Shown here: positions 30,718 through 50,383 of the stretch, piece after piece
Numbering within the stretch: the first letter of the stretch is position 1
Layout: each line of letters begins with the position of its first letter
Origin: Escherichia phage BME3
DNA length: 64,000 nucleotides
Strand: one strand, 5' to 3'
Sequence record: PP239276.1
Translations under genes and position numbers: made by a program
Notes under the pieces: generated by a model
The model's database searches: none
What the model was told of the DNA's origin: nothing
The model's input: the letters and a program-made list of their open reading frames with translations, nothing else

Positions 30718-31374
30718 ATGACTGTTAAGCATATTTCTTTTGATGTATGGAATACTCTTATTACTGCTAATCCTTTGTATGCAGAAGAACGCAACAAGGT
30801 TATTGCCGAGTATGCCTCTTGTTCTGAGGTAGAAGCAGCTACCGTATATAAAGAGGTAAAAACTCTCCTGGATTTAAAAGCAGAAAAAGGCATTTGTGGA
30901 ACATCTAGAAATGCTTGGGAAACACTTTCTGCTCATTTGAACATTGATCTTGATAAGGTGGATGGGTTAAAAAGAGATTGTTTGGCAATGTTTATAAAAC
31001 ATCCTCCAACGTTGAATCCTGAACTTTGCAAGAAGTTGGAAGAGCTAAGTTCAACCTACTCTTTGAGTATTAAAAGCAATACCAATTTTGTACCTGGCAG
31101 TTTCTTAGCTGTATATTCTGGCTTGACAAAATTACCATTCGATTTTATGCATTTTTCTGATGAGTTTTGCTTGTGTAAACCAGATCCCAGGTTTTTTAAA
31201 CTCTCTTTTGATGAAATGGTAACGTTTGATCTCGCACCAGAGGAGATTTTACACGTTGGAGATAGTTTGATCTATGATGGAAAAGCTGTTGACATAGGGA
31301 TGAAGTTCTGTCATATTATTAATCCAGAAGACTTGTTGGCTAAACTTAAAAAAGAGGAACTTATTAATGCGTAA
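30718..31374 (+). CDS. HAD-superfamily phosphatase
   Basis: N-terminal ISFDVWNTLI matches HAD motif I (DxDxT-type); start trimmed to ATG 30718. Confidence 0.6.
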   Translation: MTVKHISFDVWNTLITANPLYAEERNKVIAEYASCSEVEAATVYKEVKTLLDLKAEKGICGTSRNAWETLSAHLNIDLDKVDGLKRDCLAMFIKHPPTLNPELCKKLEELSSTYSLSIKSNTNFVPGSFLAVYSGLTKLPFDFMHFSDEFCLCKPDPRFFKLSFDEMVTFDLAPEEILHVGDSLIYDGKAVDIGMKFCHIINPEDLLAKLKKEELINA

Positions 31375-32224: not shown

Positions 32225-32933
32225 TAAAGTAATGACTTTCGGAGATCCTATTACCAATATTACAGAAAAAGATTTTGGGCGCGTAGCAACAGATAAAGAT
32301 GGTGTCTTAAGAATTCGTGTACAAGGCATTACAGCACAGGATGAATATGCTGTGTATGTTTCAGGTCTTAACTATATTGATGATCGCATTACACAAAACT
32401 TTGCACTGATCGGTGGTGTAGAGAAAATGTACTGGGAAGATGAAATTGTAACAAGTTATCCAGCAGGTATCATTGAGGTATACGGTGATCTTTTAGCAGC
32501 AGCCGAGAGAGGCGATATAGACGCTATAGCACACTGCTGTAACTGTTTTTGCACTATGGGTAGTGGTATTGCACCAAAAATTAAAAGCAAGTGGCCTGGT
32601 GCGTTTAAAGCAGATTGTGCCACTACACGTGGTGATTATAAAAAATTAGGTACGTTTACCAAATATACAGAAAACAATTTGACAATTTATAATTTATATG
32701 GACAATATGGTTATAGTCGTCGTGAGGAAGGTAAGCGTGACCTGAATTATGAAGCTATCTACAATGCGCTAGATAGTATGGGAGACGATGTTGTATCTTC
32801 AGGCGGTAAAATTGTAGGTTTACCAATGCTTGGTTGTGGTTTGGCTGGAGGTTCTTGGAATATTGTAAAACTTATGATCGAAGAAACTCTAGTAAACAAA
32901 GGTTTAAATGTAATTGTTTACAAACTGAAATAA
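32217..32933 (+). CDS. macro-domain protein (putative ADP-ribose binding/hydrolase)
   Basis: GDIDAIAHCCNCFCTMGSGIA and GLPMLGCGLAGGSW resemble the two macro-domain glycine-rich motifs; start trimmed to ATG 32217. Confidence 0.5.
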   Translation: MSNKVMTFGDPITNITEKDFGRVATDKDGVLRIRVQGITAQDEYAVYVSGLNYIDDRITQNFALIGGVEKMYWEDEIVTSYPAGIIEVYGDLLAAAERGDIDAIAHCCNCFCTMGSGIAPKIKSKWPGAFKADCATTRGDYKKLGTFTKYTENNLTIYNLYGQYGYSRREEGKRDLNYEAIYNALDSMGDDVVSSGGKIVGLPMLGCGLAGGSWNIVKLMIEETLVNKGLNVIVYKLK

Positions 32934-32942
32934 GGAGAAAGT

Positions 32943-33149
32943 ATGGCAGGTGTTTTAGCAGTATTAGGTTGTTTTATTGTTGTGTTCTTGATTGTGTTAA
33001 TCCCTAGTTGGCTACTGCTTTTAGCATACAACTATATGATTGACATTATCGGCTTAGACTGGCATCATGTTCCTGTAACGTTTTGGAGTGTAGTCTGTGT
33101 GACGTTCATTCTTGCGGTACTCCGTGGTATCTTTCAATCTAACAAATAA
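32943..33149 (+). CDS. small membrane protein (68 aa)
   Basis: ORF track; two hydrophobic helices. Confidence 0.5.
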   Translation: MAGVLAVLGCFIVVFLIVLIPSWLLLLAYNYMIDIIGLDWHHVPVTFWSVVCVTFILAVLRGIFQSNK

Positions 33150-33163
33150 GAGAGGATCTTTAT

Positions 33164-33412
33164 ATGCGTAAAGTAAATGTTGAAGTGCTTGAAAAATTTA
33201 TAAACACCCGTGATTGTACTATCGGCAAGGTTTACGAGGCTATTCTCATTGAAGATGGGGATGAAGTTCCTGCCCCGTATCATGCCTTTAACGGTCAGGT
33301 TAGCAAAGTGGAAGGTGGTCTTGCTATTTGCTTTATTGATGATGTAGGTGATGCTGTAGCTTTCCCTATCATTAACAAAGAAGATAAACTTAAAATTACA
33401 GAACTGAACTAG
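33164..33412 (+). CDS. hypothetical protein (82 aa)
   Basis: ORF track. Confidence 0.5.
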   Translation: MRKVNVEVLEKFINTRDCTIGKVYEAILIEDGDEVPAPYHAFNGQVSKVEGGLAICFIDDVGDAVAFPIINKEDKLKITELN

Positions 33413-33489
33413 TTGACTTTCTTTAAAAACAGTTTATAGTATAAGACATAGAGCGGAGGATTGTCCTCCGCATTAAAGAGGAGAAAAGA

Positions 33490-34467
33490 ATGCAACTGGG
33501 TTTCCCAATTATTGATGTGGTTGTTTTAGTGGGTATTTTAGTGTTGTCGATTTGTATTGATTTCTTTGGACACAGAGAAAACAAAGAAATTTCATTTAAA
33601 TCTGCAATTGGTTGGTCAATTTTCTGGATTGGGGTATCATTAGCCTACTATGGTTTTGTATACTTCCAACACGGTGCTGATTTTGCGAGCTTGTTTTTGA
33701 GTGGGTATGTGTTGGAGAAATCTCTTTCTGTAGATAACTTAGTAGTATTTGTGGCAGTATTCGCAAGTTTTGGTATTAAAAGCACACACTTGCAACACAA
33801 GATTCTACTTTGGGGTATTGCAGGTGCGATTGTCTTCCGAGGTGTGTTTGTAGCAGTAGGCACTTACTTGTTGAGTTTGGGCTGGTATGTTAATATCTTC
33901 TTCGGTGCGGTCATCCTTTTCTGTGCAGCTAAAATGGTATTCGCTGGAGATAATGACGCAGAAGTTGATTACTCTAAACACTGGGCTACTCGCATTGTTC
34001 GTAAACTGTTCCCTGTATCTGATCAGATGGATGGCGAGAAGTTCTTCACAATCAAAAATGGTGTTCGTGTAGCAACTCCGGCTCTGGTTTGTGTGTTTGT
34101 AATGGAAATGGTTGACGTAATCTTTGCAGTAGACTCTGTTCCAGCAGTAATTGCAGTGACACAAGAACCTCTGCTTGTATTTTCTTCAATGCTGTGTGCA
34201 ATTTTAGGTTTACGTGCTCTGTTCTTTGTCCTTAGTGTTGCACTGAAATATTTGGTTCATCTGGAGAAAGCAGTTATCGTAGTCCTGGTATTTGTGGGTG
34301 TAAAACTGATGTATCACCCGTTTGCAGAAACTCTGCACGCAAAAGTGAGTTTCCTGCCAGCACACATTGATCCGACGATCAGTATGTATATTGTGTTAGG
34401 TACTCTGGGGCTGGGTGTTATTGCAAGTTTAATCTTCCCTGAAAAAGAAGACCAAGCTGTTGCTTAA
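33490..34467 (+). CDS. terC: TerC-family integral membrane protein
   Basis: Signature EKSLSVDNLVVF and multiple TM helices. Confidence 0.8.
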   Translation: MQLGFPIIDVVVLVGILVLSICIDFFGHRENKEISFKSAIGWSIFWIGVSLAYYGFVYFQHGADFASLFLSGYVLEKSLSVDNLVVFVAVFASFGIKSTHLQHKILLWGIAGAIVFRGVFVAVGTYLLSLGWYVNIFFGAVILFCAAKMVFAGDNDAEVDYSKHWATRIVRKLFPVSDQMDGEKFFTIKNGVRVATPALVCVFVMEMVDVIFAVDSVPAVIAVTQEPLLVFSSMLCAILGLRALFFVLSVALKYLVHLEKAVIVVLVFVGVKLMYHPFAETLHAKVSFLPAHIDPTISMYIVLGTLGLGVIASLIFPEKEDQAVA

Positions 34468-34473
34468 TTCATT

Positions 34474-34495
34474 AAGCCCCTTCGGGGGCTTTGTT
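34474..34495 (+). terminator. hairpin aagcccc-ttcg-ggggctt after terC
   Basis: GC stem with tetraloop; weak T-tract. Confidence 0.45.
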
Positions 34496-34506
34496 GAGGT
34501 GATCTG

Positions 34507-34713
34507 ATGGTGGTTTTACGTGTTCTTTGGATTCTGTTTGAAAATATTTGTTTTGCTCTAGGGTTGTTTTGTTTGATTTTTATCTTGACAACATATATTG
34601 ATAACCATACAATTACTATCAACAGGAACGGAGAACAGATGTATTGTTTCTCTAGGGATTTTAAAAATTGTGTTGAGACTTTAAATGAGAGGGTTACAAA
34701 TGAAAAACATTAA
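34507..34713 (+). CDS. small membrane protein (68 aa)
   Basis: ORF track. Confidence 0.4.
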   Translation: MVVLRVLWILFENICFALGLFCLIFILTTYIDNHTITINRNGEQMYCFSRDFKNCVETLNERVTNEKH

Positions 34714-35290
34714 ATCTTTTATTGTTGCAGTTGTTTTAGGTAGTGCATTGTTGGTAGGTTGTGATGATTCTGAAAATGTACAAAACCAACGTTACCAACA
34801 AACACCAAATCAGATGGTAGATGAACAATATGTAAATCAACCTGCACCTCAAGTTGTTCAAGCAGCACCTGCACAACCTTCAACAGTTGTTGTGCAAGGA
34901 GGCGGTAGTGGTTCTTCTGGCGTAGGTGAGTTTGCTACAGGTATGCTTCTTGGTCATATGTTGAGTGGTAATAGTGGCGGTGGTGGTTATAGGGATGGTG
35001 GTAGCAGCACAACAATTATTAATAACAACGCTGCTCCTACAACTAACAATAAAGCATATACAACACAAAAGCATAGTTTTTATGATAAACAAGGAAATAC
35101 ATATACAACCACTAAACAAAACACAATTAAGCAGCAAAGTGTACAAACGTATTCACGCCCATCAACAACAAAAGTGAATAGTGATTACTCTGCTCGTAAG
35201 TCTTACTCAAGTCCTATTAGCTCTTATAGTAAGTCTTCGAAAAGTTATTCTTCGTCGAAACGTAGTTTTAGTAGCTCACGTCGTCGTTAA
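34700..35290 (+). CDS. lipoprotein with Ser/Tyr-rich C-terminal low-complexity tail
   Basis: MKNIKSFIVAVVLGSALLVGC lipobox; tail SYSSPISSYSKSSKSYSSSKRSFSSSRRR; start trimmed to 34700. Confidence 0.6.
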   Translation: MKNIKSFIVAVVLGSALLVGCDDSENVQNQRYQQTPNQMVDEQYVNQPAPQVVQAAPAQPSTVVVQGGGSGSSGVGEFATGMLLGHMLSGNSGGGGYRDGGSSTTIINNNAAPTTNNKAYTTQKHSFYDKQGNTYTTTKQNTIKQQSVQTYSRPSTTKVNSDYSARKSYSSPISSYSKSSKSYSSSKRSFSSSRRR

Positions 35291-35325
35291 TAATTTAATA
35301 CAGATTAAACAAGAAGGAGAAACAG

Positions 35326-36177
35326 ATGAAACTAGAAGTTGGTAAAGTGTATCGCCTGGAAGGTTGGATCTTTAATCAAGAAATTCTTGAGAAGAATAAA
35401 GATGGTTTTGAGTTTGTTGGTACTACCCAGGAAAGTATGCACGATGATGAATACTGTAAATTCGTTGGTAAAAATACAGGTCAAGAACAATTTTGCTTTA
35501 AGAGCGCAATCGGTGATTATGCTTCTGTAATGCCAACACCAGAAAAAACTCCGAAGCAATATACTGTCTTTGGTGTAAAACTTGAAGAACTTGTAGAACA
35601 CCCACGTTTTGAAGAGTTCAAGGTTGCTGCAATGTGCAAGCATTCTGAAATTAAAATACATAATTTGTTTGATTTAGAAGATCGGTTTGATATCTTTATG
35701 TATGATCGCAGGGAAAAGCATTTTGATGCAACGACTTCAAAATTTGCTGCAACAGAGGATATTAAAATTCTTGATGTTGATACCTTTCTTCAGAATGTAT
35801 CGTTTGTATTCATTCCTAAGTACAAAAAACGTAGTGATCATAAACGTGTGAAAGGAACTCCTCGTAAGAAACGTACTGTAAACAAAGCAACTTTGCACTT
35901 CACTTCTGGTGATAAGTATACTCTCAAAGGGTTTGAAAGTGTTTTGTATGATGCTGGAACGGGTAATATCAAGTTTATCATTAAGGCAACCTACAAAGGT
36001 ACGGTATTACACGAAGAGGCTGTTACACTACCTGTATTCGATATCTCTCGTGTTGAGGTACGGGGTGTTAAAGAGTCCTTCGATCTGGATTTCTTAACCA
36101 CTAATGCTACTGGTTATGTTAATCTGGAAGCAGATGGGGCGTTTATTACTACAAATTATTTAGATATGTTTGTTTAA
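35326..36177 (+). CDS. hypothetical protein (283 aa)
   Basis: ORF track. Confidence 0.6.
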   Translation: MKLEVGKVYRLEGWIFNQEILEKNKDGFEFVGTTQESMHDDEYCKFVGKNTGQEQFCFKSAIGDYASVMPTPEKTPKQYTVFGVKLEELVEHPRFEEFKVAAMCKHSEIKIHNLFDLEDRFDIFMYDRREKHFDATTSKFAATEDIKILDVDTFLQNVSFVFIPKYKKRSDHKRVKGTPRKKRTVNKATLHFTSGDKYTLKGFESVLYDAGTGNIKFIIKATYKGTVLHEEAVTLPVFDISRVEVRGVKESFDLDFLTTNATGYVNLEADGAFITTNYLDMFV

Positions 36178-36245
36178 TACTTAATTTGTGTTATGATGGT
36201 GGTACAGAGGTATCACCATCTACTAAAGAATATGGAGGAAATTGA

Positions 36246-37349
36246 ATGTCCAGTCCTTTTATCAGTGCCGTAAAAAGCAAACCGTCTGAAATGAGTGTAT
36301 TCACGGCAACAACAGAAAAAAGTAAGTCTTTGTTTGCTCCAAGTGCTATGGATGCAAGCCCTGTATATGCACCTGCTGTTGCACGACCTGTACAAATGCT
36401 GCCTCCAATGTCTCGTGAAGAGATTGAACAGGTTGGTGCTGATGCAGGACTTACTCTTCGTAACCTTAATGCTGAAGTGCTTAAACACCAGCGTTCATCT
36501 CAGGGAGATGAAATGAGTGAACGTTTAACTGCACTTATTAAGCAAGCAAAGCAACTTGATCCTAATTCTATTAAACAATCTAAAGGTTTAGGTAAGTTAG
36601 TTAAGAAAGTATTAGGTATGAAAGAAGATTTGTTTGGAGAATTTGACACCATCAATAATCGTATTGAAGGTTTGGTAAAGACACTCCAAACAGACTTGAA
36701 AAAAGAAGAAGATTCTTTACGATATCTGCAACGTTTAGAAGAGGCTATTGCAAAATATGCTCTTAGCTTAAACAGAGATATAGAGCTTCTAACAGCTACG
36801 TATGAAAAAGAAGAAGTTCGCCTTAATACACTACCTGAAAATGAAGTAGAAGAGCGTCAACGTACTCGTGATACTATGGATCTGCTTGAAATTCGTATTG
36901 CAGACCTGAAAGCATTACGTTTACTCTGTGTTCAGATGGGGCCACGTGTACAAAGTATGCAGAAAGTATCTGCAAGTTTGATGCGATCAGCACGTAACAT
37001 TGTGAATAATGTTATCCCTGCTTACTCTGCAAACTTTTCTATGTATATTGAAAGTCTACGCCAGAAGAAAGCAGCCGATACACAGAACAATGTACTGAAT
37101 GAATTTAATGCTGCTATTGCAATGGGTAGTGATCTGGCTGCACAAAACCAAATTGAAGCTACACAACTTGCTAATCGTCAAGTATTGGATATTGAAACAC
37201 TACGTCGCGATCAAGAAAACTTAGTTAAAATGTTGGAAGAAACTAACCGAATCAACACTGAAGCCCGTGCTGCTCGTATTGATTACATCCAAGAAGTGCA
37301 ATCTCTTGAAGATGGTATGATTCAAACTGTTAAACGTGGTCTACTTTAA
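36246..37349 (+). CDS. TelA-like toxic-anion-resistance family protein (tentative)
   Basis: 367 aa, long alpha-helical/coiled-coil; size and Ter context fit TelA/KlaB; motif support weak. Confidence 0.4.
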   Translation: MSSPFISAVKSKPSEMSVFTATTEKSKSLFAPSAMDASPVYAPAVARPVQMLPPMSREEIEQVGADAGLTLRNLNAEVLKHQRSSQGDEMSERLTALIKQAKQLDPNSIKQSKGLGKLVKKVLGMKEDLFGEFDTINNRIEGLVKTLQTDLKKEEDSLRYLQRLEEAIAKYALSLNRDIELLTATYEKEEVRLNTLPENEVEERQRTRDTMDLLEIRIADLKALRLLCVQMGPRVQSMQKVSASLMRSARNIVNNVIPAYSANFSMYIESLRQKKAADTQNNVLNEFNAAIAMGSDLAAQNQIEATQLANRQVLDIETLRRDQENLVKMLEETNRINTEARAARIDYIQEVQSLEDGMIQTVKRGLL

Positions 37350-37362
37350 GGAGAAATATATT

Positions 37363-37569
37363 ATGAATATTAAAATTTACAAACTGTCTGGTTCTATGAT
37401 TGCTGTCCAGTACGACAATGAAGATCGTTATGTTCTCCTCCAGGATGCTTGGTTAGATGATCCTAATGTATTCACTGTCCTGCGAGAACTACGTTCTGTC
37501 TATACCTATTCTTCTAAAGATGGTTTTGATAGTTCAACGATGGAATTGGTAAAAGAGGAGAATGTGTAA
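37363..37569 (+). CDS. hypothetical small protein
   Basis: ORF track trimmed to ATG 37363 with RBS aggaga. Confidence 0.5.
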   Translation: MNIKIYKLSGSMIAVQYDNEDRYVLLQDAWLDDPNVFTVLRELRSVYTYSSKDGFDSSTMELVKEENV

Positions 37570-37769
37570 TGAGTAAAGATATTCACTTAACTCGTGAAGA
37601 GTTACAAACCATTATGGAAGATGCTTTCATTGATGGTTGGAAACAAGGTCAAGAGTCAGATTGGTATGATGCCGAAGATTTTTTGTATTATCATATGACT
37701 GCACCTGTAGACGAGCAAACACACTCTGAAACAACTTTGGCTTTAATTGATCTTAAGGCTGGTGTATAA
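37569..37769 (+). CDS. hypothetical small acidic protein
   Basis: ORF track; ATGA coupling. Confidence 0.5.
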   Translation: MSKDIHLTREELQTIMEDAFIDGWKQGQESDWYDAEDFLYYHMTAPVDEQTHSETTLALIDLKAGV

Positions 37770-38332
37770 TGGGGTGTTTTAGTTTCTTGTGCAAAGAGTC
37801 TGGTAATGCTGCTCTTTCTACCTCTTTCGATGGCTCTCCTTGCTACCTATTTCTTTTGAAAGGTGGTAAAGTTGTTGAAGAGATGTATGGCAATTATGAT
37901 AGCTATGGTAGTGTTTTCTCTAACGAAGAAGATAAACATGGCAATCGTAAAAGATTCAAGTGGTCTATGCCTTGGGAAGAAGTTTGTAATTTGATGTTCT
38001 CTTCCGATCCTGGGGATGGTATCGCTATGATATTAGAAGAGCACTTTACAGGTGAGATCCCAACAGAAAGATCTGAAGAAGACCCTAACCAGGGCTGGGG
38101 TGATGGAGAAGAAGATCCAGATTGCTTCTTCAGTATTGAAAATAATAAATTTAAACGTGTTGACAATCCTTACCACAAAGTGCATAATACTTGCATTGAG
38201 ACAGAAGAAGACTCAAAGCTAGAAATTGAAGATGATTTAGTTGTAACTATCTCTTTAAACGAGTTACAAAAGATCACCAGAGAGGCTTTCTACTTAGGCT
38301 TGAGAGCAGGTAAAGGAGAAGACAGTGCTTAA
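37769..38332 (+). CDS. hypothetical acidic protein (187 aa)
   Basis: ORF track. Confidence 0.55.
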   Translation: MGCFSFLCKESGNAALSTSFDGSPCYLFLLKGGKVVEEMYGNYDSYGSVFSNEEDKHGNRKRFKWSMPWEEVCNLMFSSDPGDGIAMILEEHFTGEIPTERSEEDPNQGWGDGEEDPDCFFSIENNKFKRVDNPYHKVHNTCIETEEDSKLEIEDDLVVTISLNELQKITREAFYLGLRAGKGEDSA

Positions 38333-38594
38333 ATTTAATATCAAAGACGACAAATCAGATGAACCTAAATGTTTTGGAGAACTTGACGCAGGTGATACAT
38401 TCGTATATTATGTTGCCTATCAAGATGCTGGTTTAGATACGTTCAGAAACTTAGTGTTTATTAAGATTAATACAAACCAAGCAATGTGTCTGAACGGTTC
38501 ACAAAGAGGTCAACTTAACTGTATCTTATATGATACAGAAGTGGTAGAAGTGGATTTAGAAGTTACTAACATTACAGTCAGAAAGGAGAAATAA
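38325..38594 (+). CDS. hypothetical protein (GTG start)
   Basis: ORF track; RBS aggaga 5 nt upstream of GTG. Confidence 0.45.
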   Translation: MLKFNIKDDKSDEPKCFGELDAGDTFVYYVAYQDAGLDTFRNLVFIKINTNQAMCLNGSQRGQLNCILYDTEVVEVDLEVTNITVRKEK

Positions 38595-38595
38595 T

Positions 38596-39390
38596 ATGTC
38601 CAATAAAATCAGTCTTAAAAAACGTCAAGAAACTCTTACTGTATCTCTGCGTAAGAAAAAGATTAACGATGTTGTTCTTCGTGTCGGTAGCGCCTTAGAT
38701 ATTTCGGGCAGTATGTGTGAACTGTATCGTGATGGCACTGTTAGTGATTTTGTAGGTAAACTGCTGCCGTTTGGTATGAAGTTTGATGATAATGCACAGA
38801 TTGACATGTGGGCTTTCAATAGTTCTTCTTTTGAACTGCCTCCTGCAACGGCTGATGTGTATGATGATTATGTCGGCTCTTGCATGTCTAATGTTTGCAT
38901 CAACGGTGGTACAGCCTATGCTCCAGTAATGCAAGAGATCTATGATACATACTTCGGTAGTGTACCTATGAAAAATATTACACGCGAAGTCGTTGAGTAT
39001 GAAGAAGTTCCGGCTAAAGGTTTCCTTGCTAAACTAACTGGTAAAAAAGAACTTGTAGAAGTAACACGTACTATTGTAGAACAGGTTGTAGATACTGATG
39101 CACAAGTTGATCGTACTCCTGCAATGATTTTCTTCCAAACTGATGGGGAGAACATGGATACTTCAGCAGTACGTAGCTTACTGAACAAACACCGCAACAC
39201 GCCTGTTTACTGGTTTATGGTCGGTGTAGGTAATGCAAACTTTAAATTCCTGAAAGACTTGGCAAAAGAATACGATAATGTTGATTTTATCGGTATTGCA
39301 GATTTGTCCTTGTCTGATGAAGAACTTTACGATAAACTGTTATCCGAAGAGTTTGGTGAGTGGGTTAAAAAATTCGGAGCAAAAGCGTAA
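38596..39390 (+). CDS. von Willebrand factor A (vWA) protein, TerY-like
   Basis: MIDAS residues DISGSM ... TAY ... QTDGEN; N-terminus ISLKK resembles TerD N-terminus. Confidence 0.7.
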   Translation: MSNKISLKKRQETLTVSLRKKKINDVVLRVGSALDISGSMCELYRDGTVSDFVGKLLPFGMKFDDNAQIDMWAFNSSSFELPPATADVYDDYVGSCMSNVCINGGTAYAPVMQEIYDTYFGSVPMKNITREVVEYEEVPAKGFLAKLTGKKELVEVTRTIVEQVVDTDAQVDRTPAMIFFQTDGENMDTSAVRSLLNKHRNTPVYWFMVGVGNANFKFLKDLAKEYDNVDFIGIADLSLSDEELYDKLLSEEFGEWVKKFGAKA

Positions 39391-39462
39391 AAAACGCTTG
39401 ACTTTGTAGAAAAGATTAGTAAAATAGACAACGTAAATTAACAACAAAGGAGATAATAAATT

Positions 39463-40059
39463 ATGACTCAGAAAATTTCCCTGAAAAAAGGTTCTAGCGA
39501 AAAAATTTCTCTGAAAAAGATCGCACCAGCACTGAAACGCATTCGCCTGGAATTCTCTTGGAAATCTAACGAAAAACTGGATCTGGATGTTAGTGCTCTG
39601 ATTTGCCGACACAATGCATCTGGTCTGCCGGAACTGTTGTCTCCTCGTCACCTGGTGTGCTACGCGCAGAAATTTGATCCTGAACGTTCTACTTTTGCAG
39701 GTGAAGATGTTCGTGATGGTGTAGGGCAGATGGAACAGATTGATGTTACACTGGATAATATCTCTGCTGAAGCACAGGAAATTGCATTCGTAATTACTAT
39801 TGATGATGAAACGGGTAAGAAACGCCTTGGTCACGCTACCGAAGGTTTCCTTAAAATCTTCGATGATGAACGTAATGTTGAACTGCTGGACTTTGACTTC
39901 TTGGCCCCAGAACTTGCAGGTAACACCATTTGCCACGTTGCCTCCCTGGTGCGGGAAGATAGCGAATGGAAACTGAAAGCATATGGTGTAGGTAAAGCTG
40001 GGCTTGACATTTACGATGTAGTTAAAGCGTTTGGCGCTGGCGACGATTGGTTCGAGTAA
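39463..40059 (+). CDS. terD: TerD-domain protein
   Basis: Matches E. coli TerD across length: ISLKK, DLDVSALIC, AGEDVRDG, IAFVITIDD, SEWKLKAYGVG. Confidence 0.85.
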   Translation: MTQKISLKKGSSEKISLKKIAPALKRIRLEFSWKSNEKLDLDVSALICRHNASGLPELLSPRHLVCYAQKFDPERSTFAGEDVRDGVGQMEQIDVTLDNISAEAQEIAFVITIDDETGKKRLGHATEGFLKIFDDERNVELLDFDFLAPELAGNTICHVASLVREDSEWKLKAYGVGKAGLDIYDVVKAFGAGDDWFE

Positions 40060-40818: not shown

Positions 40819-41328
40819 TTGTCAATAAAAACCTTTGTCGCAATTGCGTTACTATCCTTAACTGCTTTTACATTTACACCTGTTGTGGCGCAAGCCGAAG
40901 CTGCAAACGTAAAAACTGCTAAAGTAGTTCACAAGTGTACAAAGCGTGATAGTAAAGAAAATCTATTAGCTTGTGCAATCTATGCAGAAAGTCGTAATCA
41001 AGGAAAGCGCGGTATGTCTGCTGTTGGTAATGTAGTATTGAACAGGGCAAGAGATTCATATTTCCCTGATACTATAAAAGAAGTTTTGTTTCAAAAAGGA
41101 CAATTCTCTTACACGAAGACATTCAACGTTATGGAACACGATAAGTGGAAGGAAGCTAAGGCTATAGCAGAACGTCTACTTTATCTCGAAAACCATTTTC
41201 CAGAATTACGAATTGCATTAGATATTACAAAAGGAGCATTATACTTTAAAAAATCTACAATAAAAGCACACTGGGAAAAAGATATGGTTCTAGTGTACCG
41301 CTACAAAGAACATCAATTCTATCGCTAA
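40819..41328 (+). CDS. SleB/CwlJ-like cell-wall hydrolase with signal peptide
   Basis: AIYAESRNQG...VVLNRARDSYFPDTIKEVLFQKGQFS matches Hydrolase_2 pattern; TTG start after RBS aggagg. Confidence 0.7.
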   Translation: MSIKTFVAIALLSLTAFTFTPVVAQAEAANVKTAKVVHKCTKRDSKENLLACAIYAESRNQGKRGMSAVGNVVLNRARDSYFPDTIKEVLFQKGQFSYTKTFNVMEHDKWKEAKAIAERLLYLENHFPELRIALDITKGALYFKKSTIKAHWEKDMVLVYRYKEHQFYR

Positions 41329-42076: not shown

Positions 42077-42640
42077 ATGATATTTCACATAACTCCCTAT
42101 CTTTCTGGAGATATTGGAAAAGGTATCAATGACACAATAAGTGTCTTACCAGAAGATAGTTGGATTTGCCTAAGAGACATTGATACAATGTTTCTTCTTC
42201 CAGAACAACCTGCTTGGTTGGAATCAATAGTCCGTTCAAATCCTGATTTTGATGTTCTTGGTGCATCTTGTAATAGGTTGGGATCAACATATCAATTATT
42301 TAATAATGAAAGAAGTGAAGATCCAAATATATTACACCACATTGAGATTGCAAAAAGAGCACATCTAGAATGGGGGAACTCAATAGAGGAAGTACCTACA
42401 GATGCTATCTTAGCAGGATTCTTTCTTCTCTTTCGTAAGAGTCTGTGGAATGAAATCCCTTTTGAGGAAAGATCAATACAGTTTGATATAATTTTCTCTA
42501 AAGCATTACACGCTAACAATAAAAGGCTAGGTTTACTACGTGGGTTATATTTATTTCACACATACCGTTTAGGTAATGATGATCCTAGAAAAGCTGTTTC
42601 ACACCTTTTACATTGTCAAGACATGAATAAAATTATTTAA
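42077..42640 (+). CDS. putative GT-A-fold glycosyltransferase-like protein
   Basis: RDID (DxD-like) near N-terminus; weak. Confidence 0.35.
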   Translation: MIFHITPYLSGDIGKGINDTISVLPEDSWICLRDIDTMFLLPEQPAWLESIVRSNPDFDVLGASCNRLGSTYQLFNNERSEDPNILHHIEIAKRAHLEWGNSIEEVPTDAILAGFFLLFRKSLWNEIPFEERSIQFDIIFSKALHANNKRLGLLRGLYLFHTYRLGNDDPRKAVSHLLHCQDMNKII

Positions 42641-42649
42641 GGAGTTATT

Positions 42650-43336
42650 TTGGAAAATACAAAAATTGGTGTTGGTGTTATTACTGTAGGTAAGCGTCCT
42701 CTTAAAGATTATCTTGTGACTGATCCTAATGCTACTTTTGTTGTACAGTATGATCGGGAACGAAAAGGTGTTGCATATGCCCGTAATGAACTGATGAAAA
42801 AGTTTTATGATGAAGGGTATGATTACTGGTTTATCTTTGATGATGATTGCTATCCGGTTGTGCCAGGTTGGGAAACATATTTTGTAAAACAGGCTAAGGA
42901 AAATGGCTGGGATTTCTTTGGTATGCCTGAATACTTTAAAGATAAAGTAAAAGGTATTGAAGGTGAAGTGGTTATTTGGGAACTAGGCATGTGCCAGTTT
43001 GGTATGTATTCCCGTGCAGTTATTGAGAAAGCTGGCTATTTCCGTTCATACACCCACGGTTACGGATATGAAGATGCAGAGTGGATTCAGCGTGTTCCAC
43101 TGGCAGGTTTGAACCGAGGTATTCACGGCGTACCATGTCCTATTCGAATTATGGCGTTTATCCATCCTGACGATGTGTTTGGAGATAATCCTTTACCTTT
43201 TGCGAATCTGTCAAAAGAAGAGAAAGAACAGGGGATTGGTGTAAACTGGGAACAATATAAACAATCACTGGAGGATCTTCGCAATGGTAAAACTTTTATC
43301 TCTTATGAGGAGGCTCAAAAATATGGTAAATCCTAA
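42650..43336 (+). CDS. putative GT-A-fold glycosyltransferase
   Basis: WFIFDDDCYP DxD motif after a predicted Rossmann-like N-terminus. Confidence 0.5.
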   Translation: MENTKIGVGVITVGKRPLKDYLVTDPNATFVVQYDRERKGVAYARNELMKKFYDEGYDYWFIFDDDCYPVVPGWETYFVKQAKENGWDFFGMPEYFKDKVKGIEGEVVIWELGMCQFGMYSRAVIEKAGYFRSYTHGYGYEDAEWIQRVPLAGLNRGIHGVPCPIRIMAFIHPDDVFGDNPLPFANLSKEEKEQGIGVNWEQYKQSLEDLRNGKTFISYEEAQKYGKS

Positions 43337-44297
43337 TACTCCTGTACTTAAGTGTGATAATAAGTTAGGCAGTGGTTGTGATTACCATCGTATTGTAATG
43401 CCATTTGCGGGAAATACGTTTAAGCCTAAGAAAGACGTTTTAGTTTTTAATAGAGTGTATTCTCGTGGATCAGACGAAGTTAAACGCCTGAAGGCACAAG
43501 GTGTTAAGATTATTGTAGACTTAGATGATTTTTATTCACTTAACCCTGAACATTATATGGCTGGCGTATTTAGTAATCACTCAAAGACTATTGTAGAGAT
43601 GATTAAGTTAGCAGATGTTGTTACTGTGACAACAGAATACCTAGCTTACAAAATTCGTCATTTAAACCGTAATGTTGTCGTTATTAGAAACGCACTGCCT
43701 TACGACGAAGGTCAATTTACTTTGACAAAAGACCGTTATTCTGACACGCCTATTATTTGGGCTGGAGGGGCGAGCCATGAGCCTGACTTATCTCTTGTGG
43801 CTAATACATTTGATGATACACTATTGACAATTGCAGGGTATGAAGTGTATCCTTCTGCACCTGTTGGAAATAATAGTCAGTATCTAACTACTGCGGAGTG
43901 GGTTAAAGTCAAACGTAAAATTCCAAATGCACAGTATAAACCAGCTATTAAAAATTTAGGTGAGTATATGTCTGTGTATGACGGTCACAGTATTGCAATT
44001 GCTCCTCTGGTAGATAACGACTTCAACAACTGTAAAAGTAATTTGAAGATTTTGGAAGCAGGTGCAAAGGGTCTTCCTATTATCTGTTCTCCTGTGCTGC
44101 CGTACTTCAATCCGGTAGATGCAAAGGCTGTTATCTATGCAGATTCTAAAGCATCTTGGCATTATGAAGTTGTCAAGCTAATGAGGAACCCTAGATACAC
44201 AGAAGATCGTGGTATGATGCTTGCAGAACACGTTCGTCTTAATTATAATCTTGCAGATGCCAATGAACTGCGTCGTCAAGTTATTGAAAGTCTTTAA
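43323..44297 (+). CDS. putative GT-B-fold glycosyltransferase (paralog 1)
   Basis: C-terminal KSNLKILEAGAKGLPIICSP sugar-nucleotide-binding-like motif; collinear with 44309..45253. Confidence 0.45.
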   Translation: MVNPNTPVLKCDNKLGSGCDYHRIVMPFAGNTFKPKKDVLVFNRVYSRGSDEVKRLKAQGVKIIVDLDDFYSLNPEHYMAGVFSNHSKTIVEMIKLADVVTVTTEYLAYKIRHLNRNVVVIRNALPYDEGQFTLTKDRYSDTPIIWAGGASHEPDLSLVANTFDDTLLTIAGYEVYPSAPVGNNSQYLTTAEWVKVKRKIPNAQYKPAIKNLGEYMSVYDGHSIAIAPLVDNDFNNCKSNLKILEAGAKGLPIICSPVLPYFNPVDAKAVIYADSKASWHYEVVKLMRNPRYTEDRGMMLAEHVRLNYNLADANELRRQVIESL

Positions 44298-44308
44298 TAA
44301 GGAGCGAT

Positions 44309-45253
44309 ATGCCTAATATTATTCTTGACACACGCGGAAATGAAAAGTATAGTGTATGTGATTTTCATAGAATCATTTTGCCATATAAACGCAAGCTGAC
44401 CATTAATCCTAAGCATAATATTTTTGTGTTCAATGGAGTACCAACACGTGGGAAGCCAGGTTTCCTGGCTCTTAAACAACTTGGGTTTAAATTGGTAATG
44501 GATCTGGATGATTCTTTAATTATTCCTGAAGGGCATATGCTTGAAGGATTATTTGAAAATCAAATCCGAGATGACCTAAAATGGTTCCTTGAAAGAAGCG
44601 ATCTTGTAACTACAACAACTCCAGCATTAAAGGTTGAATTAAGCCAATACAATGATAATGTACATATTGTGCCTAACGGACTACCTTTTGATGAAGGACA
44701 GTTTGTTCTTACGAAAGATCGTTATTCTAAAAGTCCACTGGTTTGGGCGGGAAGTGAAACACATAAACATGATTTAGCTATTCTTCCTAGTTTTGGTAAA
44801 GATTTAACTTTATGTGGATTTCGTAGAGATCACGAAGAGTTAAGTAGTGCTCAATGGTTGCAAATTAAAGAAGATATTCAACCAGATTGTGTTTATGAAG
44901 GTATTCGTCCTTATGAGTGTTATATGGAAGCATACGATGGTCATCAAATCTCTATAGCTCCATTAGTAAATAATCATTTTAATAATGCCAAAAGTAATTT
45001 AAAAATTCTTGAAGCTGGTGCTAAAGGTTTGCCACTCGTTTGTTCACCACGAGAGAACTACTATACTGAAGAATTTAAAGATCTAATCTTCTTTGCTGAT
45101 TCAGTTAAAGAGTGGAAAGATATTGTAGAATACTTAATCGAATCTCCTGATGTTTGTATTGAGAAAGGATTGGCTCTTGCTAAGTATGTAAGAGATAACT
45201 ACAATATTGATGATTTAAATGAAACCCGCAGACTGCTTATCGAGGATTTATAA
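44309..45253 (+). CDS. putative GT-B-fold glycosyltransferase (paralog 2)
   Basis: KSNLKILEAGAKGLPLVCSP; shared CDxHRI(V/I) N-terminus with paralog 1. Confidence 0.45.
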   Translation: MPNIILDTRGNEKYSVCDFHRIILPYKRKLTINPKHNIFVFNGVPTRGKPGFLALKQLGFKLVMDLDDSLIIPEGHMLEGLFENQIRDDLKWFLERSDLVTTTTPALKVELSQYNDNVHIVPNGLPFDEGQFVLTKDRYSKSPLVWAGSETHKHDLAILPSFGKDLTLCGFRRDHEELSSAQWLQIKEDIQPDCVYEGIRPYECYMEAYDGHQISIAPLVNNHFNNAKSNLKILEAGAKGLPLVCSPRENYYTEEFKDLIFFADSVKEWKDIVEYLIESPDVCIEKGLALAKYVRDNYNIDDLNETRRLLIEDL

Positions 45254-45522
45254 TGAACACTTTTGATTTTGAGTATAAACAAGATAATAAAGAACCTATT
45301 ATTGTTGAAGTAGATTACTATTATGAAGAACCTAATCCTTTCTCACGAGAAAGTGATTGGGATTATTATGGTGGTCTTATTGTTGATGGTATTAGATTTT
45401 ATTCTGGTACAAAAGAACTTTTTGATATAGATATTTCCCCATCGGAAATTGTTTACCAATTTAAGAAACATATGGAAGATTTGGAAATGCAATATATTAT
45501 GGAGACAAACGAATCATTTTAG
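45253..45522 (+). CDS. hypothetical protein (89 aa)
   Basis: ORF track. Confidence 0.5.
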   Translation: MNTFDFEYKQDNKEPIIVEVDYYYEEPNPFSRESDWDYYGGLIVDGIRFYSGTKELFDIDISPSEIVYQFKKHMEDLEMQYIMETNESF

Positions 45523-45534: not shown

Positions 45535-47307
45535 GTGTCTTATGTTGTAAATAAATATGGGTATAACATTGATCTAAGTCAAGAAGGACATACTGGGTGT
45601 CCTCGTTGTATGAAAGGAGGGCGTGATCGATCACAAAACAATTTGATGGTATATGGCTTAGATGCCGATGAAGACCATCGAGGCGCACATTGTTTTTCTT
45701 GTGGCTTTACTATCCCTGATCAAAAATGGTTAAATGCACACGGCGAAGAAATTGAAGAGGAGGATATCTTGGGTAGTGAGTTTAATCCAGAAGTACATGA
45801 TAAACTAAAAGCCAGCACTGGGACTAATCCAAAAGGTTATCGCGGTATTCGTGAAGATATCTCTAAGCCTTTCGGTGTACGCTATATGTACGATGAAGCT
45901 ACTGGCGAAGTAATTTCAACACTATACCCTACAACTAAAGATTACAATATTGCTGGGTATAAACAACGTATCGATCCAAAAGATTTTTCGCATCCTATCG
46001 GTGAAACAGGAAAGGATTGTGATCTTTTTGGGGAGTTTAAATATCGTAACCACAGCGGTACTATTCTAATCGTTGGTGGTGAACACGATATGCTGGCTGC
46101 AACACAGATGCTAAAAGATTATAACAAGGGTGGTAAATATCCTGTTCCTGCTGTAGTATCTGGTACTTGTGGCGAAACATCTCTGCATAAGCAGCTTCAA
46201 CATCGTTATAAATTCTTAGATCAATTTAAAAAGATTGTTCTGTGTATGGATAATGATGAAGCTGGACGTGCAGCAGTTGAGAAATGTGTTAAAATCTTAC
46301 CACGTAATAAAGTTTACGTGATGGAACTAACGGATGTTAAAGATCCTAACCAGGCACTAGTAGAAGGAAAAATTGATCACTTTCTTGATCGCTTTTTCAA
46401 AGCTAAACTGTACACACCTGCTGGTGTTTATGCTTCTAACGTACTGTATGAAGCAGCCTTGGAATGTCTGGAAGCTAAAATGATTACTCTTCCTCCATTC
46501 ATGCGTGTTGCTTCTAATATGTTAGGTGGAGGCTTGGTAGAAGAAGAAATTACTGTTATACTTGCAAAAACAAGTATTGGTAAGACACTGTTGGTTAACG
46601 AGATTACGAAACACATTATTCTTGCACACCCAGAACATACTCTTGGTATTTTATCTTTGGAGGCAACGTATAAGAAGTATTCTCGTAACTTACTGTCTTC
46701 ATTCTTGCACATCCCTCTTCACCGTAAAACAAAAGAAGAGAAGGAAAAGATTTTAAAAGATAATGAAGAAAAGATTCGTGATTTTTACGAACGGGAAGAT
46801 GGAACACCACGTTTCTATGTTTGTGATGATCGTGGAGCTAACGTAGATGTGATTAAAGAGAAGGTTCTGGAAATGATTATTTATTTCGGAGTAACCATTC
46901 TTGTTATCGACCCTTATTCTGACTTGCTTTCTGGTATGGACGTGTCACAACAAGAGGAACTTGCGACGTGGCTCAAACGCATTATGAAAGAGTACGCAAT
47001 CACCATTGTTGTAATTTCACACGTTAAAAAGTCTTCTAACAATAGTAATGAACATATTGTAGAAGATGATGCAATGGGTAGTAGCTTCCTTGCTAAAGGT
47101 GCTGGTATCACAATTGCGCTGGAGCGTGATAAACAAGCTGAAGATCCTATGGAACGTAACCGCACATATTGCTACATCCTAAAGAACCGTGAGTTCTCAG
47201 AGACTGGTGCAGCAGGTAGTTTCTTCTATGAGATTAAAACAGCGACACTTCACGATTACGATCAATACACAAGTAACCCAGAGAATATTCCTGATGGTTC
47301 TTATTAA
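45535..47307 (+). CDS. bifunctional DNA primase-helicase (T7 gp4-like)
   Basis: Zn-binding CPRC/CFSCG, TOPRIM (EHD, DNDEAG), DnaB-like Walker A KTSIGKT; GTG start with RBS aggaga. Confidence 0.8.
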   Translation: MSYVVNKYGYNIDLSQEGHTGCPRCMKGGRDRSQNNLMVYGLDADEDHRGAHCFSCGFTIPDQKWLNAHGEEIEEEDILGSEFNPEVHDKLKASTGTNPKGYRGIREDISKPFGVRYMYDEATGEVISTLYPTTKDYNIAGYKQRIDPKDFSHPIGETGKDCDLFGEFKYRNHSGTILIVGGEHDMLAATQMLKDYNKGGKYPVPAVVSGTCGETSLHKQLQHRYKFLDQFKKIVLCMDNDEAGRAAVEKCVKILPRNKVYVMELTDVKDPNQALVEGKIDHFLDRFFKAKLYTPAGVYASNVLYEAALECLEAKMITLPPFMRVASNMLGGGLVEEEITVILAKTSIGKTLLVNEITKHIILAHPEHTLGILSLEATYKKYSRNLLSSFLHIPLHRKTKEEKEKILKDNEEKIRDFYEREDGTPRFYVCDDRGANVDVIKEKVLEMIIYFGVTILVIDPYSDLLSGMDVSQQEELATWLKRIMKEYAITIVVISHVKKSSNNSNEHIVEDDAMGSSFLAKGAGITIALERDKQAEDPMERNRTYCYILKNREFSETGAAGSFFYEIKTATLHDYDQYTSNPENIPDGSY

Positions 47308-47803: not shown

Positions 47804-50383
47804 ATGGGAGCTTTTACTTTCGACATTGAAAGTAACAACTTGCTTAATGACGAAAGTGTAGATTACTTGGCAAGTCCATATCGTTTAAAAGATAGTTTTG
47901 CAATGCACTGTATTGTGTGCGAAAGTCATGATACTGGAGAGATTATTGCTTTCCATGATGGTGATAAATATCTTTTCGATGGTCGTCCGTATGTTGAGAC
48001 TGACGGAAAGTATGAATACCGACTGGAGGAATATGAGCATTTAGAATATACCCATTTCCCTCTTAAAGATTTTCCTGATTTTGTAAATGGAACAGGTAAA
48101 TTTAAAGGTAATTCAAACTATAAAATTACCAAAGTAGTTGGACACAACATCATTAACTTCGACTTACTGGCAATTAAATTATTTTTTAAACTCAACTACA
48201 GTATTAAGTACAATACTTGGGGTAATAGTAACATTGAAATTTGTGATACTATGATCTTAAGTAAGACACTAAACCCTGATCGCTTCGGTGGTCATAGTCT
48301 GGCAGAGTTATCTAAGAAAGCTGGAGGGGATGTTAAAATTGATTTCAGAAAAAACATTCCTGAAACTGAAAGATTTAGAACATTTGCAGCAGATATGCTG
48401 TATTACTGTATTTACGATAACAAAGCTAACACCGCAGTGTTCCGTTATCTGATGGAAGAATGGGGTGATTATAGTAAGTGGTCTGAACCATTTAACTTAG
48501 AACAACGTGTAGCTGATATTATTACACGTCAAGAGCACCGTGGCTTTGCTTTCAATATGAAACAAGCAGAAGATAATATTCGTGATCTGGATGCTCGAAT
48601 GGAAGCATGTCGTTTAGAGGCAGAACCTGTACTACCTCCTAAACCTGCTACTAAAGGTTATTTGAAATCATTCATTCCACCTAAACTACAGTTTAAAAAG
48701 AATGGTGAACCTTCAAGTAACATGATAAAGTTTGCAGAGAAACATTCTGGTGAACTTGTACAAAAAGAAGATGGTTGGTGGTTATTTGCTTTAGGTAAAG
48801 AATTCAAACTCCCTATTCCAGCAGAAGAACCTATTTGTGATCCTACAGTACCTGCTACTTTAGACGACACTACACATATTAAAAACTGGTTAGTTGGTTT
48901 AGGTTGGAGTCCATCTGAATATAAAGATAAAGATATCACTCTTAAATCTGGCACTAAGATTAAGAAAGATGAAGCACAAATGGAGAAAGCTATTCGTGAC
49001 TATGTTGATCAAACATTAGCATCTAACTTCTGCCAGGATAGATGTGATCATCTGGAGTGCACACCAGAAACTTTGGAATGGAAACTAAGAGATCGTATTG
49101 CTAAAGCTAAAGGTCGTGGTGTTAAAGTGCTTACTAACCCTTCCTTTACAAAAGGGCAAGAGAAAGATATTTGTCCTAACTTGGAAGCACTAGGTGAAAA
49201 GTTTCCTTATGCTACGCAGATTGTGCAATATCTTACGTATAAACATCGTAGAAACTCTATTCTAGGTGGTGGTGCTGATTGGGAAGAAGATGAAGAGGAT
49301 TACGATAAAGGTTATCTGGCGGCAGTAAGGGCTGATGGTCGTATACCAACTCCTGCTGCAACGTGTGATGCAGCTACGTCTCGTATGAAACATAGGTTAG
49401 TAGCAAATATCCCACGTGTAACATCTCTGTACGGATATGAAATGCGTAACTTATTTGGTGTAGAAGTTCCAAAATACTTCCAGATTGGTTATGACTTCGA
49501 TTCTCTTGAAGCAAAAATAGAATCACACTACTGTTGGCGGTACGAGCAGGAGCCACACGAATATTGTAATGCTCTATTGTTGGAAAAACCTAATGATGTT
49601 CATACAATGATGGCTCGACGTATTTCTGACACTATTGGTCGTAAGTTTGAACGAAGCCCTGCTAAATCTGTTAAGTATGGTATTACCTATGGTGCTCAAG
49701 CTGCAAAAGTAGCAAAAACTATTGGTAGTGATATGTATACAGGACAGCTTGTATACGATGCTTTCTGGGAAGCTGCAAAACCTCTTGCGCTTCTTAAAGA
49801 ACGTCTGCATGATTTTTGGGTTAAAACAGGTAAGAAATACATTCTTGGTATTGATGGTAGAAAAGTACCTACACGATCTGCACACGCAATACTTAACTCT
49901 CTGTTCCAGAGTGGTGGTGTTATTTGTGCAAAAAGAGCAATGGTTATCTACGACGATCTTATCGAAGAAGAAGGATTAGCTGTTGACTTTTTTGTTGATG
50001 ACTGGAAAAATAAGTCATTCGTTCAACAAATGATTGCATATCACGATGAAGCACAGCTTGAAGTAACTCGTGATCTGGTGCATTTTAAATGGTTCTCTAA
50101 AGAATCTTTAGGTTGGACTCAAGTTGATGATCCAGAAGAACAAAAGAAAATTGATAAAGAATGTTTGGATAAAGTTAACGCCTGGAAAGAAGAGGAAGAG
50201 AAACGTACTGGCAAGATTTGGGCTAACGTACATGAATCTCCTAAAGGTGGTTGGTTTACAGCCTACAGTCGTGCTGGAGAATTAGCATCTATTGCTGTTA
50301 ATAAAGCTGGTGAGTATTACAATCTTAATGTACCTCTCACTGCTGGTTACGATGTTGGTAACTCATGGGCTAGTTGTCACTGA
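47804..50383 (+). CDS. family A DNA polymerase with 3'-5' exonuclease domain
   Basis: Exo I FTFDIESNNL, motif B KSVKYGITYGAQ, motif C IAYHDEAQLEV; RBS aaggaggg. Confidence 0.9.
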   Translation: MGAFTFDIESNNLLNDESVDYLASPYRLKDSFAMHCIVCESHDTGEIIAFHDGDKYLFDGRPYVETDGKYEYRLEEYEHLEYTHFPLKDFPDFVNGTGKFKGNSNYKITKVVGHNIINFDLLAIKLFFKLNYSIKYNTWGNSNIEICDTMILSKTLNPDRFGGHSLAELSKKAGGDVKIDFRKNIPETERFRTFAADMLYYCIYDNKANTAVFRYLMEEWGDYSKWSEPFNLEQRVADIITRQEHRGFAFNMKQAEDNIRDLDARMEACRLEAEPVLPPKPATKGYLKSFIPPKLQFKKNGEPSSNMIKFAEKHSGELVQKEDGWWLFALGKEFKLPIPAEEPICDPTVPATLDDTTHIKNWLVGLGWSPSEYKDKDITLKSGTKIKKDEAQMEKAIRDYVDQTLASNFCQDRCDHLECTPETLEWKLRDRIAKAKGRGVKVLTNPSFTKGQEKDICPNLEALGEKFPYATQIVQYLTYKHRRNSILGGGADWEEDEEDYDKGYLAAVRADGRIPTPAATCDAATSRMKHRLVANIPRVTSLYGYEMRNLFGVEVPKYFQIGYDFDSLEAKIESHYCWRYEQEPHEYCNALLLEKPNDVHTMMARRISDTIGRKFERSPAKSVKYGITYGAQAAKVAKTIGSDMYTGQLVYDAFWEAAKPLALLKERLHDFWVKTGKKYILGIDGRKVPTRSAHAILNSLFQSGGVICAKRAMVIYDDLIEEEGLAVDFFVDDWKNKSFVQQMIAYHDEAQLEVTRDLVHFKWFSKESLGWTQVDDPEEQKKIDKECLDKVNAWKEEEEKRTGKIWANVHESPKGGWFTAYSRAGELASIAVNKAGEYYNLNVPLTAGYDVGNSWASCH

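Follow-up and report, generated by a model that had tools for sequence, protein, structure and literature searches.

The glycosyltransferase cluster of Escherichia phage BME3 and its tentative assignment to a rhamnose-containing glycan on a phage protein

The chlorovirus PBCV-1 protein A064R combines two rhamnosyltransferase domains with a methyltransferase, in a virus that encodes its own rhamnose synthesis and glycosylates its capsid. In mycobacteriophages, phage-encoded glycosyltransferases (GTs) glycosylate the phages' own capsid and tail-tube proteins (Freeman 2023, as related in PMC12363180 and PMC11256854), and when these phages are used therapeutically, the virion glycan has been shown to matter for their pharmacokinetics and their recognition by the immune system. 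Here, we analyzed four consecutive GT genes, A to D, in a stretch of 64,000 nucleotides (the window) from Escherichia phage BME3 (PP239276.1), and we tentatively prefer the reading that their products are a soluble four-enzyme line building a rhamnose-containing glycan on a phage protein, probably one of the virion.

The phi92-like and phAPEC8-like phages, which carry this cluster or its orthologs, have among the broadest host ranges of coliphages and are present in therapeutic cocktails and biocontrol collections. A complete deoxythymidine diphosphate (dTDP)-rhamnose pathway was described in both groups, and rhamnosylation of hydroxymethylated nucleotides was proposed (Olsen et al. 2020, PMC7552041). 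The literature has left this "dTDP glycosylation machinery" unexplained: DNA rhamnosylation was proposed first, and later no protection from restriction was seen. The cluster itself is already annotated and remarked on, and its enzymes belong to known superfamilies. What is added here is that the DNA reading is disfavored by three independent published phenotypes together with missing acceptor chemistry, and that comparative genomics is suggestive of a glycan on a protein, possibly of the virion.

Gene layout and enzyme classes

Four successive open reading frames (ORFs) occupy positions 42077–45253 of the + strand, exactly where the first-pass annotation had placed them, and every motif quoted there (RDID, WFIFDDDCYP, the motif shared by C and D, and CDxHRI) was found in the translations. 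The cluster and the genes downstream of it are as follows (aa, amino acids).

Gene A, 42077..42640, + strand: soluble GT2-like (probably GT-A) glycosyltransferase of 187 aa
Gene B, 42650..43336, + strand: soluble GT-A glycosyltransferase of 228 aa, TTG start
Gene C, 43284..44297, + strand: GT-B (GT4-like) glycosyltransferase and paralog of D; the longest ORF has 337 aa
Gene D, 44309..45253, + strand: soluble GT-B (GT4-like) glycosyltransferase of 314 aa
Acidic 89-aa ORF, 45253..45522, + strand: PHROG 4240, ATGA overlap with D, followed by the primase-helicase
Primase-helicase, 45535–47307: downstream of the cluster
DNA polymerase, 47804–50383: downstream of the cluster

The cluster had been described as lying immediately upstream of the primase-helicase and DNA polymerase genes; this order stands, but the 89-aa ORF (45253–45522) intervenes. 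The genes are tightly packed in the manner of an operon: A and B are separated by 9 nt and C and D by 11 nt, B and C overlap, and the ATGA overlap couples translation of the 89-aa ORF to that of D. Gene A is preceded by the Shine-Dalgarno sequence GGAGGGAG. A terminator scan gave no terminator-like site on the + strand inside the cluster, and a promoter scan returned 37 promoter-like sites where 28.6 ± 5.6 were expected, which is no excess; the two scans were on the whole uninformative. Given the tight packing, the lack of an internal + strand terminator-like site, and the lack of a promoter-like excess, co-transcription of the cluster with the replication genes is plausible.

Gene C has two in-frame ATG starts, at 43284 and 43323, each with a good Shine-Dalgarno sequence before it, and the longer form is mostly annotated in public records. 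The start is probably ATG 43323, giving a protein of 324 aa and a 14-nt overlap with the end of B, because GAGGAGG lies 9 nt upstream of this codon, the PHROG 7162 match to C (E 3.6e-149) begins only at residue 20, and the ortholog in Phapecoctavirus ukendt is 315 aa long. We also considered whether the 89-aa ORF, perhaps encoding an acceptor, is a conserved part of the GT cassette. In the related myovirus lineage a homolog (26% identity, E 5e-6) follows a GT-B gene, and none was found after a GT-B gene in unrelated phages; because conservation is confined to that lineage, the candidate was rejected, and the ORF is probably a member of the replication module.

Profile hidden Markov model and fold searches upheld the glycosyltransferase identity of the products, and their division into two GT-A enzymes and two GT-B paralogs holds, with A placed by motif, profile, and fusion evidence and C by its paralogy with D. 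Protein A contains LRDIDT, in which D34 and D36 (the DxD motif, D34-I-D36) are invariant in 31 homologs; NR (66–67), H88, E131, D137, and HxYR (161–164) are further conserved. Alone it gives no Pfam match, and it is covered over 100% of its length by PHROG 14179 (E 5.5e-113). The family comprises 1,203 cluster representatives, and the domain is often C-terminal in fusions with TOD1/MUCI70-like GT, GT2, and Methyltransf_24 domains; in two relatives (P0136 and P0122) the A-domain passes the Pfam cut-offs of PF13641 and PF00535. On this combined evidence, A probably has a GT-A fold. It belongs to a large phage GT family, as yet uncurated, whose members are found repeatedly in glycan islands beside head genes.

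Protein B carries WFIFDDDCYP, in which D64, D65, and D66 (the DXD motif) are invariant in 15 homologs, as is the motif YGxED, present in B as YGYED (138–142). It has the Rossmann-like alpha/beta/alpha organization of a GT-A fold. Its fold matches include the polysaccharide or teichoic-acid enzymes GlfT2, TarP, RmlT, and K4CP, and giant-virus GTs are among its best viral fold matches. Between A and B no relationship was detectable, and an hhalign comparison of their two families was not significant.

Proteins C and D are 41% identical (E 4e-83) and both carry KSNLKILEAGAKGLP and CD(Y/F)HRI, with the motifs common to both visible in the pairwise alignment. Both have the two Rossmann domains of a GT-B fold. 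D scores 26.8 bits on PF13524 (group-1 glycosyltransferase), above the cut-off of 25, and C is below Pfam thresholds of this type at 14.7–17.6 bits. Conserved residues in D are H20-R21, D65-x-D67-D68, H152, K228-S229, and E235. The last of these (in KILEAGAKG) is invariant, like K228 and S229, and we take it to be the second Glu of the EX7E motif of retaining GT4 enzymes; the residue eight positions upstream is Ala in D and is unconserved. The best fold matches of D include PglA, WlaC, PimA, WaaG, and WbnH, enzymes with lipid-linked or membrane acceptors. None of the four proteins has a transmembrane (TM) segment (19-residue Kyte-Doolittle maximum at most 1.21), and three of the four are acidic. 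Sequence searches of PDB chains with A, B, D, and an A-family profile returned nothing usable, and NCBIfam and PADLOC gave no matches for the four proteins.

Compared with their orthologs in ukendt, the genes are saturated at synonymous sites (pS 0.69–0.84), with pN of 0.15–0.25 and dN/dS of about 0.09 (about 0.095 for gene C), the same dN/dS as for the primase-helicase. The four genes are real and under selection. The 3.2-kb segment is 97.9–98.5% identical to the 30 matches listed of 55 records in the 95–99% band, which consists of Justusliebigvirus (phi92-like, Stephanstirmvirinae) E. coli myophages and includes phi92 and the BASEL phages Bas60–62; the Durham phages Paula and PATM are most likely among these near-identical carriers. 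Orthologs of the cluster proteins in Phapecoctavirus show 66–76% protein identity. GenBank records already label these genes "glycosyltransferase" or "putative disaccharide synthase."

Two records named as Campylobacter phages, A145 (MG065645) and B15 (MG065650), encode proteins about 99% and about 76% identical to the four, respectively, and A145 also carries an identical RmlC. Spread of the cluster to Campylobacter phages was considered and rejected, as these records are essentially Justusliebigvirus and Phapecoctavirus genomes; their host label is probably an error or the result of contamination.

Donor pathway and neighborhoods of distant homologs

For genes outside the 64-kb window we used EmilieFrey, a 98%-identical relative, in which RmlA, RmlB, RmlC, and RmlD each score above the NCBIfam equivalog cut-off. 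RmlC is present in 54 phage records at at least 95% identity and in 77 at 60–80%, and the GT cluster mirrors this distribution with 53–55 and 71–77 records. In these relatives the rml genes lie about 70 kb from the cluster, outside the window. A closer association is found on a contig from a more distant relative (L009), where homologs of A (47%), B (47%), and one GT-B protein (39%) flank a nucleoside diphosphate (NDP)-glucose 4,6-dehydratase-like gene, the whole group standing directly upstream of a primase-helicase gene. By virtue of this arrangement, the GTs of that lineage are physically linked to 6-deoxysugar synthesis.

Of eight unrelated phage loci analyzed, six have distant homologs of A, B, or D next to genes for terminase, portal, or capsid, and the companions of these homologs are often sugar methyltransferases and 4,6-dehydratase-like genes. 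In Mycobacterium phage Ariel, the B-like gp14 (E 4e-12) comes directly after the major head protein gene, and two further GTs and a methyltransferase gene lie between it and the head-tail connector; more than 340 mycobacteriophage records contain a GT of the Pacc40 gp98 type, which has F(L/I)FDDDCYP in common with B. Cellulophaga phage phi18:2 has gp39, a TOD1-like protein with an A-domain, and a Methyltransf_24 gene between its portal/minor capsid and protease/major capsid genes. In locus L014, genes for the two terminase subunits (small and large), portal, protease, and capsid are immediately preceded by a pair of B-like (E 8e-12) and D-like (E 7.6e-39) genes, and Streptomyces phage Zuko has the D-like gp5 and a dehydratase-like gene upstream of its terminase. 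In L018 an A-like gene belongs to a glycan island (GT2, deacetylase, and two Methyltransf_24 genes) between terminase and portal, and in L021 a D-like gene, abutted by hexapeptide-repeat and GT2 genes, is about 4 kb upstream of the small-terminase gene. The remaining two loci, L016 and L019, are large sugar-biosynthesis islands adjoining replication genes. A rough binomial estimate for six of eight, assuming a 35% chance of adjacency, is about 0.03, and these head and packaging contexts are suggestive of a link to the virion.

The islands of the unrelated metagenomic phages L018 (9001–13823), L019 (9001–16718), and L016 (10001–17873), each with homologs of A or D, contain several GTs, Methyltransf_24, polysaccharide deacetylase, DegT aminotransferase, radical SAM/SPASM, NDP-sugar dehydratases, and uridine diphosphate (UDP)-galactopyranose mutase. 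Elaborate phage-encoded glycans appear to be widespread. A chromosomal locus is found in Burkholderia dolosa (L007, 3025–8440; JAIMDN010000082.1), where a GT-B homolog of D (P0062, 35%), conserved in this species, is encoded two genes downstream of the gene for an inverse-autotransporter invasin/intimin-like protein. This is possibly an adhesin-glycosylation locus; Pfam gave no information on its neighbors apart from the invasin-like protein.

Candidate acceptors

The co-occurrence with rml genes, the homolog neighborhoods, the mycobacteriophage parallel, and the disfavored status of DNA as the target together lead us to favor a protein acceptor. A and B, as metal-dependent GT-A enzymes, and C and D, as GT4-like GT-B paralogs, would then constitute a cytoplasmic glycan-assembly line. 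Expression with the replication genes would allow the enzymes to accumulate ahead of the late proteins. Supplied with dTDP-L-rhamnose from the phage RmlABCD enzymes and with host nucleotide sugars, they would start a short oligosaccharide containing rhamnose on an acceptor encoded by the phage and then lengthen it. By analogy with the mycobacteriophages, this acceptor would most likely be a virion protein, or several of them (subunits of the capsid, decoration, tail, or fibers). An independent donor pathway may well suit a host-independent, self-directed target in phages of very broad host range that meet varied host sugar metabolism. The first-pass annotation had named virion proteins only as a second possibility; this is the option that comparative genomics favors, with an acceptor that we infer. 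Extended to the subfamily, the reading says that Stephanstirmvirinae coliphages, both phi92-like and phAPEC8-like, might coat virion protein(s) with a self-made rhamnose-containing oligosaccharide, a generalization we offer with due caution.

Several points weigh against a phage-protein acceptor. The literature covered, the phi92 proteome paper and Freeman 2023 excepted, reports no glycosylated protein of phi92-like phages, and the BME3 cluster lies in the replication module and not in the head module. Comparison with the experimentally validated Che8 gp108–110 enzymes gave no significant relationship (BLASTP E at least 0.39; hhalign probabilities below 1%, including for the A and B families), and because neither search was significant, we do not claim membership of those families. 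The GT-A and GT4 folds are in themselves uninformative on the acceptor. It is for these four reasons that our preference stays tentative. In addition, the sample of neighborhoods is small, at eight unrelated loci without a formal control, and the rml genes lie beyond the window, their presence in BME3 being deduced from relatives.

The best placed of the alternatives, although we consider it unlikely, is a non-structural target serving host takeover or counter-defense. This might be a host protein, either rhamnosylated as by EarP or glucosylated as by toxins; it might also be an RNA, for instance tRNA, or a small molecule. The putative early or middle expression of the cluster would suit such a target, as would its position directly downstream of a module of Ter-like, PRTase, HAD, and macrodomain genes, and the genus has many tRNA and NAD-salvage genes. 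Ter-type gene sets were reportedly predicted by Anantharaman and colleagues in 2012 to make a nucleoside-like metabolite. The D homolog beside the adhesin gene of B. dolosa is a hint of protein substrates. The searches speak otherwise, since there is no match in the PADLOC defense library and EarP, NleB/SseK, the large clostridial toxins, and tRNA glycosyltransferases are absent from the top fold matches. Four GTs and a dedicated deoxysugar pathway would also suggest stoichiometric building of a glycan and not catalytic inactivation, and the head-module contexts of the homologs point away from a non-structural target.

The Ter-like module (30700–40059) stands on the same strand as the cluster, and most of its members are annotated as hypothetical in EmilieFrey.

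HAD hydrolase, 30700–31374, + strand
ComF-like PRTase_3 protein, 31367–32224, + strand
Macrodomain protein, 32100–32933, + strand
TerC, 33490–34467, + strand
TelA, 36246–37349, + strand
vWA-TerF-like protein, 38596–39390, + strand
TerD, 39463–40059, + strand

Other loci in the window deserve mention. Positions 40819–41328 (+), in the early/middle region and apart from the endolysin annotated in relatives, encode a SleB-like cell-wall hydrolase of 169 aa (PF07486, E 2.9e-20) whose N terminus is hydrophobic. On the opposite strand, a protein with CapR homology and a T5orf172 domain adjoins an AAA/STAND-like ATPase, annotated as FtsH-like in EmilieFrey (12980–13969 (−) and 14044–15171 (−)), and a second AAA ATPase is encoded at 29150–30310 (+).

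Remodeling of the host envelope glycan, the other possibility named in the first-pass annotation, seems to us improbable. The GTs would act at the inner membrane face on undecaprenyl-linked intermediates of lipopolysaccharide, O-antigen, enterobacterial common antigen, or NGR, and the aim of such a change would be to block superinfection or to avoid the loss of progeny to debris that traps them. O-antigens commonly contain rhamnose, and these phages recognize several surface glycans; the best fold matches of D include enzymes for lipid-linked or membrane acceptors, and B resembles polysaccharide and teichoic-acid enzymes. Against this stands the lack, among the ORFs of the window, of a flippase, polymerase, or Gtr-type membrane component, and of any TM segment in the enzymes. 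The cluster is also 98–100% conserved in 55 isolates although host glycans vary by strain, the phages are strictly lytic and infect a very wide range of hosts, and the homologs in unrelated phages group with head and packaging genes, not with those for lysis or lysogenic conversion. A comparably small chance is left for some other phage-encoded target or a function that we have not considered, given that the fold class does not define the acceptor.

Least probable is the DNA itself. The proposal, which was the usual expectation cited by the first-pass annotation, is that hydroxylated bases of the phage genome are glycosylated to evade restriction, as is done by the T-even alpha- and beta-glucosyltransferases (AGT and BGT) or by TET-associated GTs (TAGT). 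In its favor are the adjoining primase-helicase and DNA polymerase genes, the existence of a published proposal (PMC7552041), and a Dcm-like C5-methyltransferase of the genus that could in principle seed a route from methylcytosine through hydroxymethylcytosine to a glycosylated base. It is contradicted by the published phenotypes of phages whose clusters are about 98% identical, phenotypes that come from the literature on these near-identical phages and not from the BME3 isolate. Despite their putative dTDP glycosylation machinery, Bas60–62 are "exceptionally susceptible" to restriction-modification (RM) systems (Maffei et al. 2021, PMC8594841). BREX reduces phiPau and phiPATM by seven orders of magnitude, and both phages belong to the class untouched by BrxU, a GmrSD-type modification-dependent nuclease that cuts DNA with 5-methylcytosine, 5-hydroxymethylcytosine (5hmC), or glucosyl-5hmC (Picton et al. 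2021, PMC8565348); Paula is tied to that study by PMC12210895. Finally, ARMADA II restricts Bas61 and Bas62 10^2–10^5-fold, and hypermodified Straboviridae escape it (PMC13463889). By this indirect evidence, RM, BREX, BrxU, and ARMADA II all respond to the DNA of these phages as to unmodified DNA.

The chemistry needed to prepare a DNA acceptor was likewise not found. The first-pass statement that the window has no hydroxymethylase was supported, no ThyA-type hydroxymethylase being found in the larger ORFs of the window or in those of EmilieFrey, including its larger unknown ORFs, and no TET/JBP oxygenase was found among the approximately 30 larger ORFs scanned in both, small ORFs being outside that scan. 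The only thymidylate-synthase homolog of EmilieFrey is of the ThyX type (PF02511, 36.9 bits; TIGR02170, 35.5 bits). This divergent 323-aa "thymidylate synthase," which scores far below the TIGR02170 cut-off of 87.9, is encoded at 124839–125810 (L003 8840–9811, −) and is adjoined by a thymidine kinase gene and by a sub-threshold match to an NT5C-like nucleotidase.

The enzymes themselves give DNA as acceptor little encouragement. B does have weak, sub-threshold matches to TAGT (PF20691) and to PHROG 842, the T-even beta-glucosyl-HMC (hydroxymethylcytosine) alpha-glucosyltransferase, but the former (23.3 bits, under the gathering threshold of 27.5) covers residues 16–75 only, the generic N-terminal GT-A core, and a TAGT protein ranks just 45th for B in the viral fold search. 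D is nearer to ordinary GT4 enzymes than to T4 AGT, which ranks 17th. The acidity of three of the four proteins also counts against DNA, as does their number, since we know of no DNA glycosylation system with as many as four GTs. We regard glycosylation of the DNA as very unlikely and keep it in the list only because the phenotype data are indirect and a rare, site-specific modification, with which those data are compatible, is conceivable.

If virion proteins are indeed the acceptors, BME3 and its relatives would be, to our knowledge, the first phages with a Gram-negative host to have a glycosylated virion, the glycan could affect antibody recognition, stability, and interactions with mucus and would bear on the pharmacokinetics and immune recognition of therapeutic phages, and phage glycan islands would be a widespread, cross-phylum feature. 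Should the virion carry no glycan, a new activity in host takeover or counter-defense becomes a candidate function of the cluster.

Comparison with known glycosylation systems

The bacterial GT4 and GT2 enzymes to which the cluster proteins are matched (PglA, PimA, WaaG, and BshA; GlfT2, TarP, and RmlT) share only 10–16% identity with them. Unlike in those enzymes, the first Glu of EX7E is unconserved here, and the genes are phage-borne without lipid-carrier machinery. The T-even and TAGT systems of DNA glycosylation resemble the BME3 cluster in that GT genes of a lytic myovirus lie near genes for DNA metabolism, and the folds correspond as well, with T4 AGT and BGT having the GT-B fold of C and D and TAGT the GT-A fold of B. 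They differ in that here no hydroxymethylase or TET/JBP oxygenase was found, but four GTs and a deoxysugar pathway were.

With the chloroviruses and giant viruses the likeness extends to a virus-encoded rhamnose pathway combined with several cytoplasmic GTs, and relatives of A occur as GT-GT-methyltransferase fusions. In contrast to their UDP-rhamnose, the donor in BME3-type phages would be dTDP-rhamnose, and the BME3 cluster is without a methyltransferase.

The mycobacteriophage systems (Che8 gp108–110, Corndog gp38, and Myrna) differ in that the host of BME3 is Gram-negative, its cluster lies in the replication module, and its dTDP-rhamnose pathway is, judging from relatives, encoded elsewhere in the genome. 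Like the BME3 cluster, they are phage-encoded and consist of several soluble GTs. B is homologous only to other actinophage GTs, typified by Pacc40 gp98 and Ariel gp14, and has F(I/L)FDDDCYP in common with them, and homologs of A, B, and D are found in head-morphogenesis modules, often together with O-methyltransferase-like genes.

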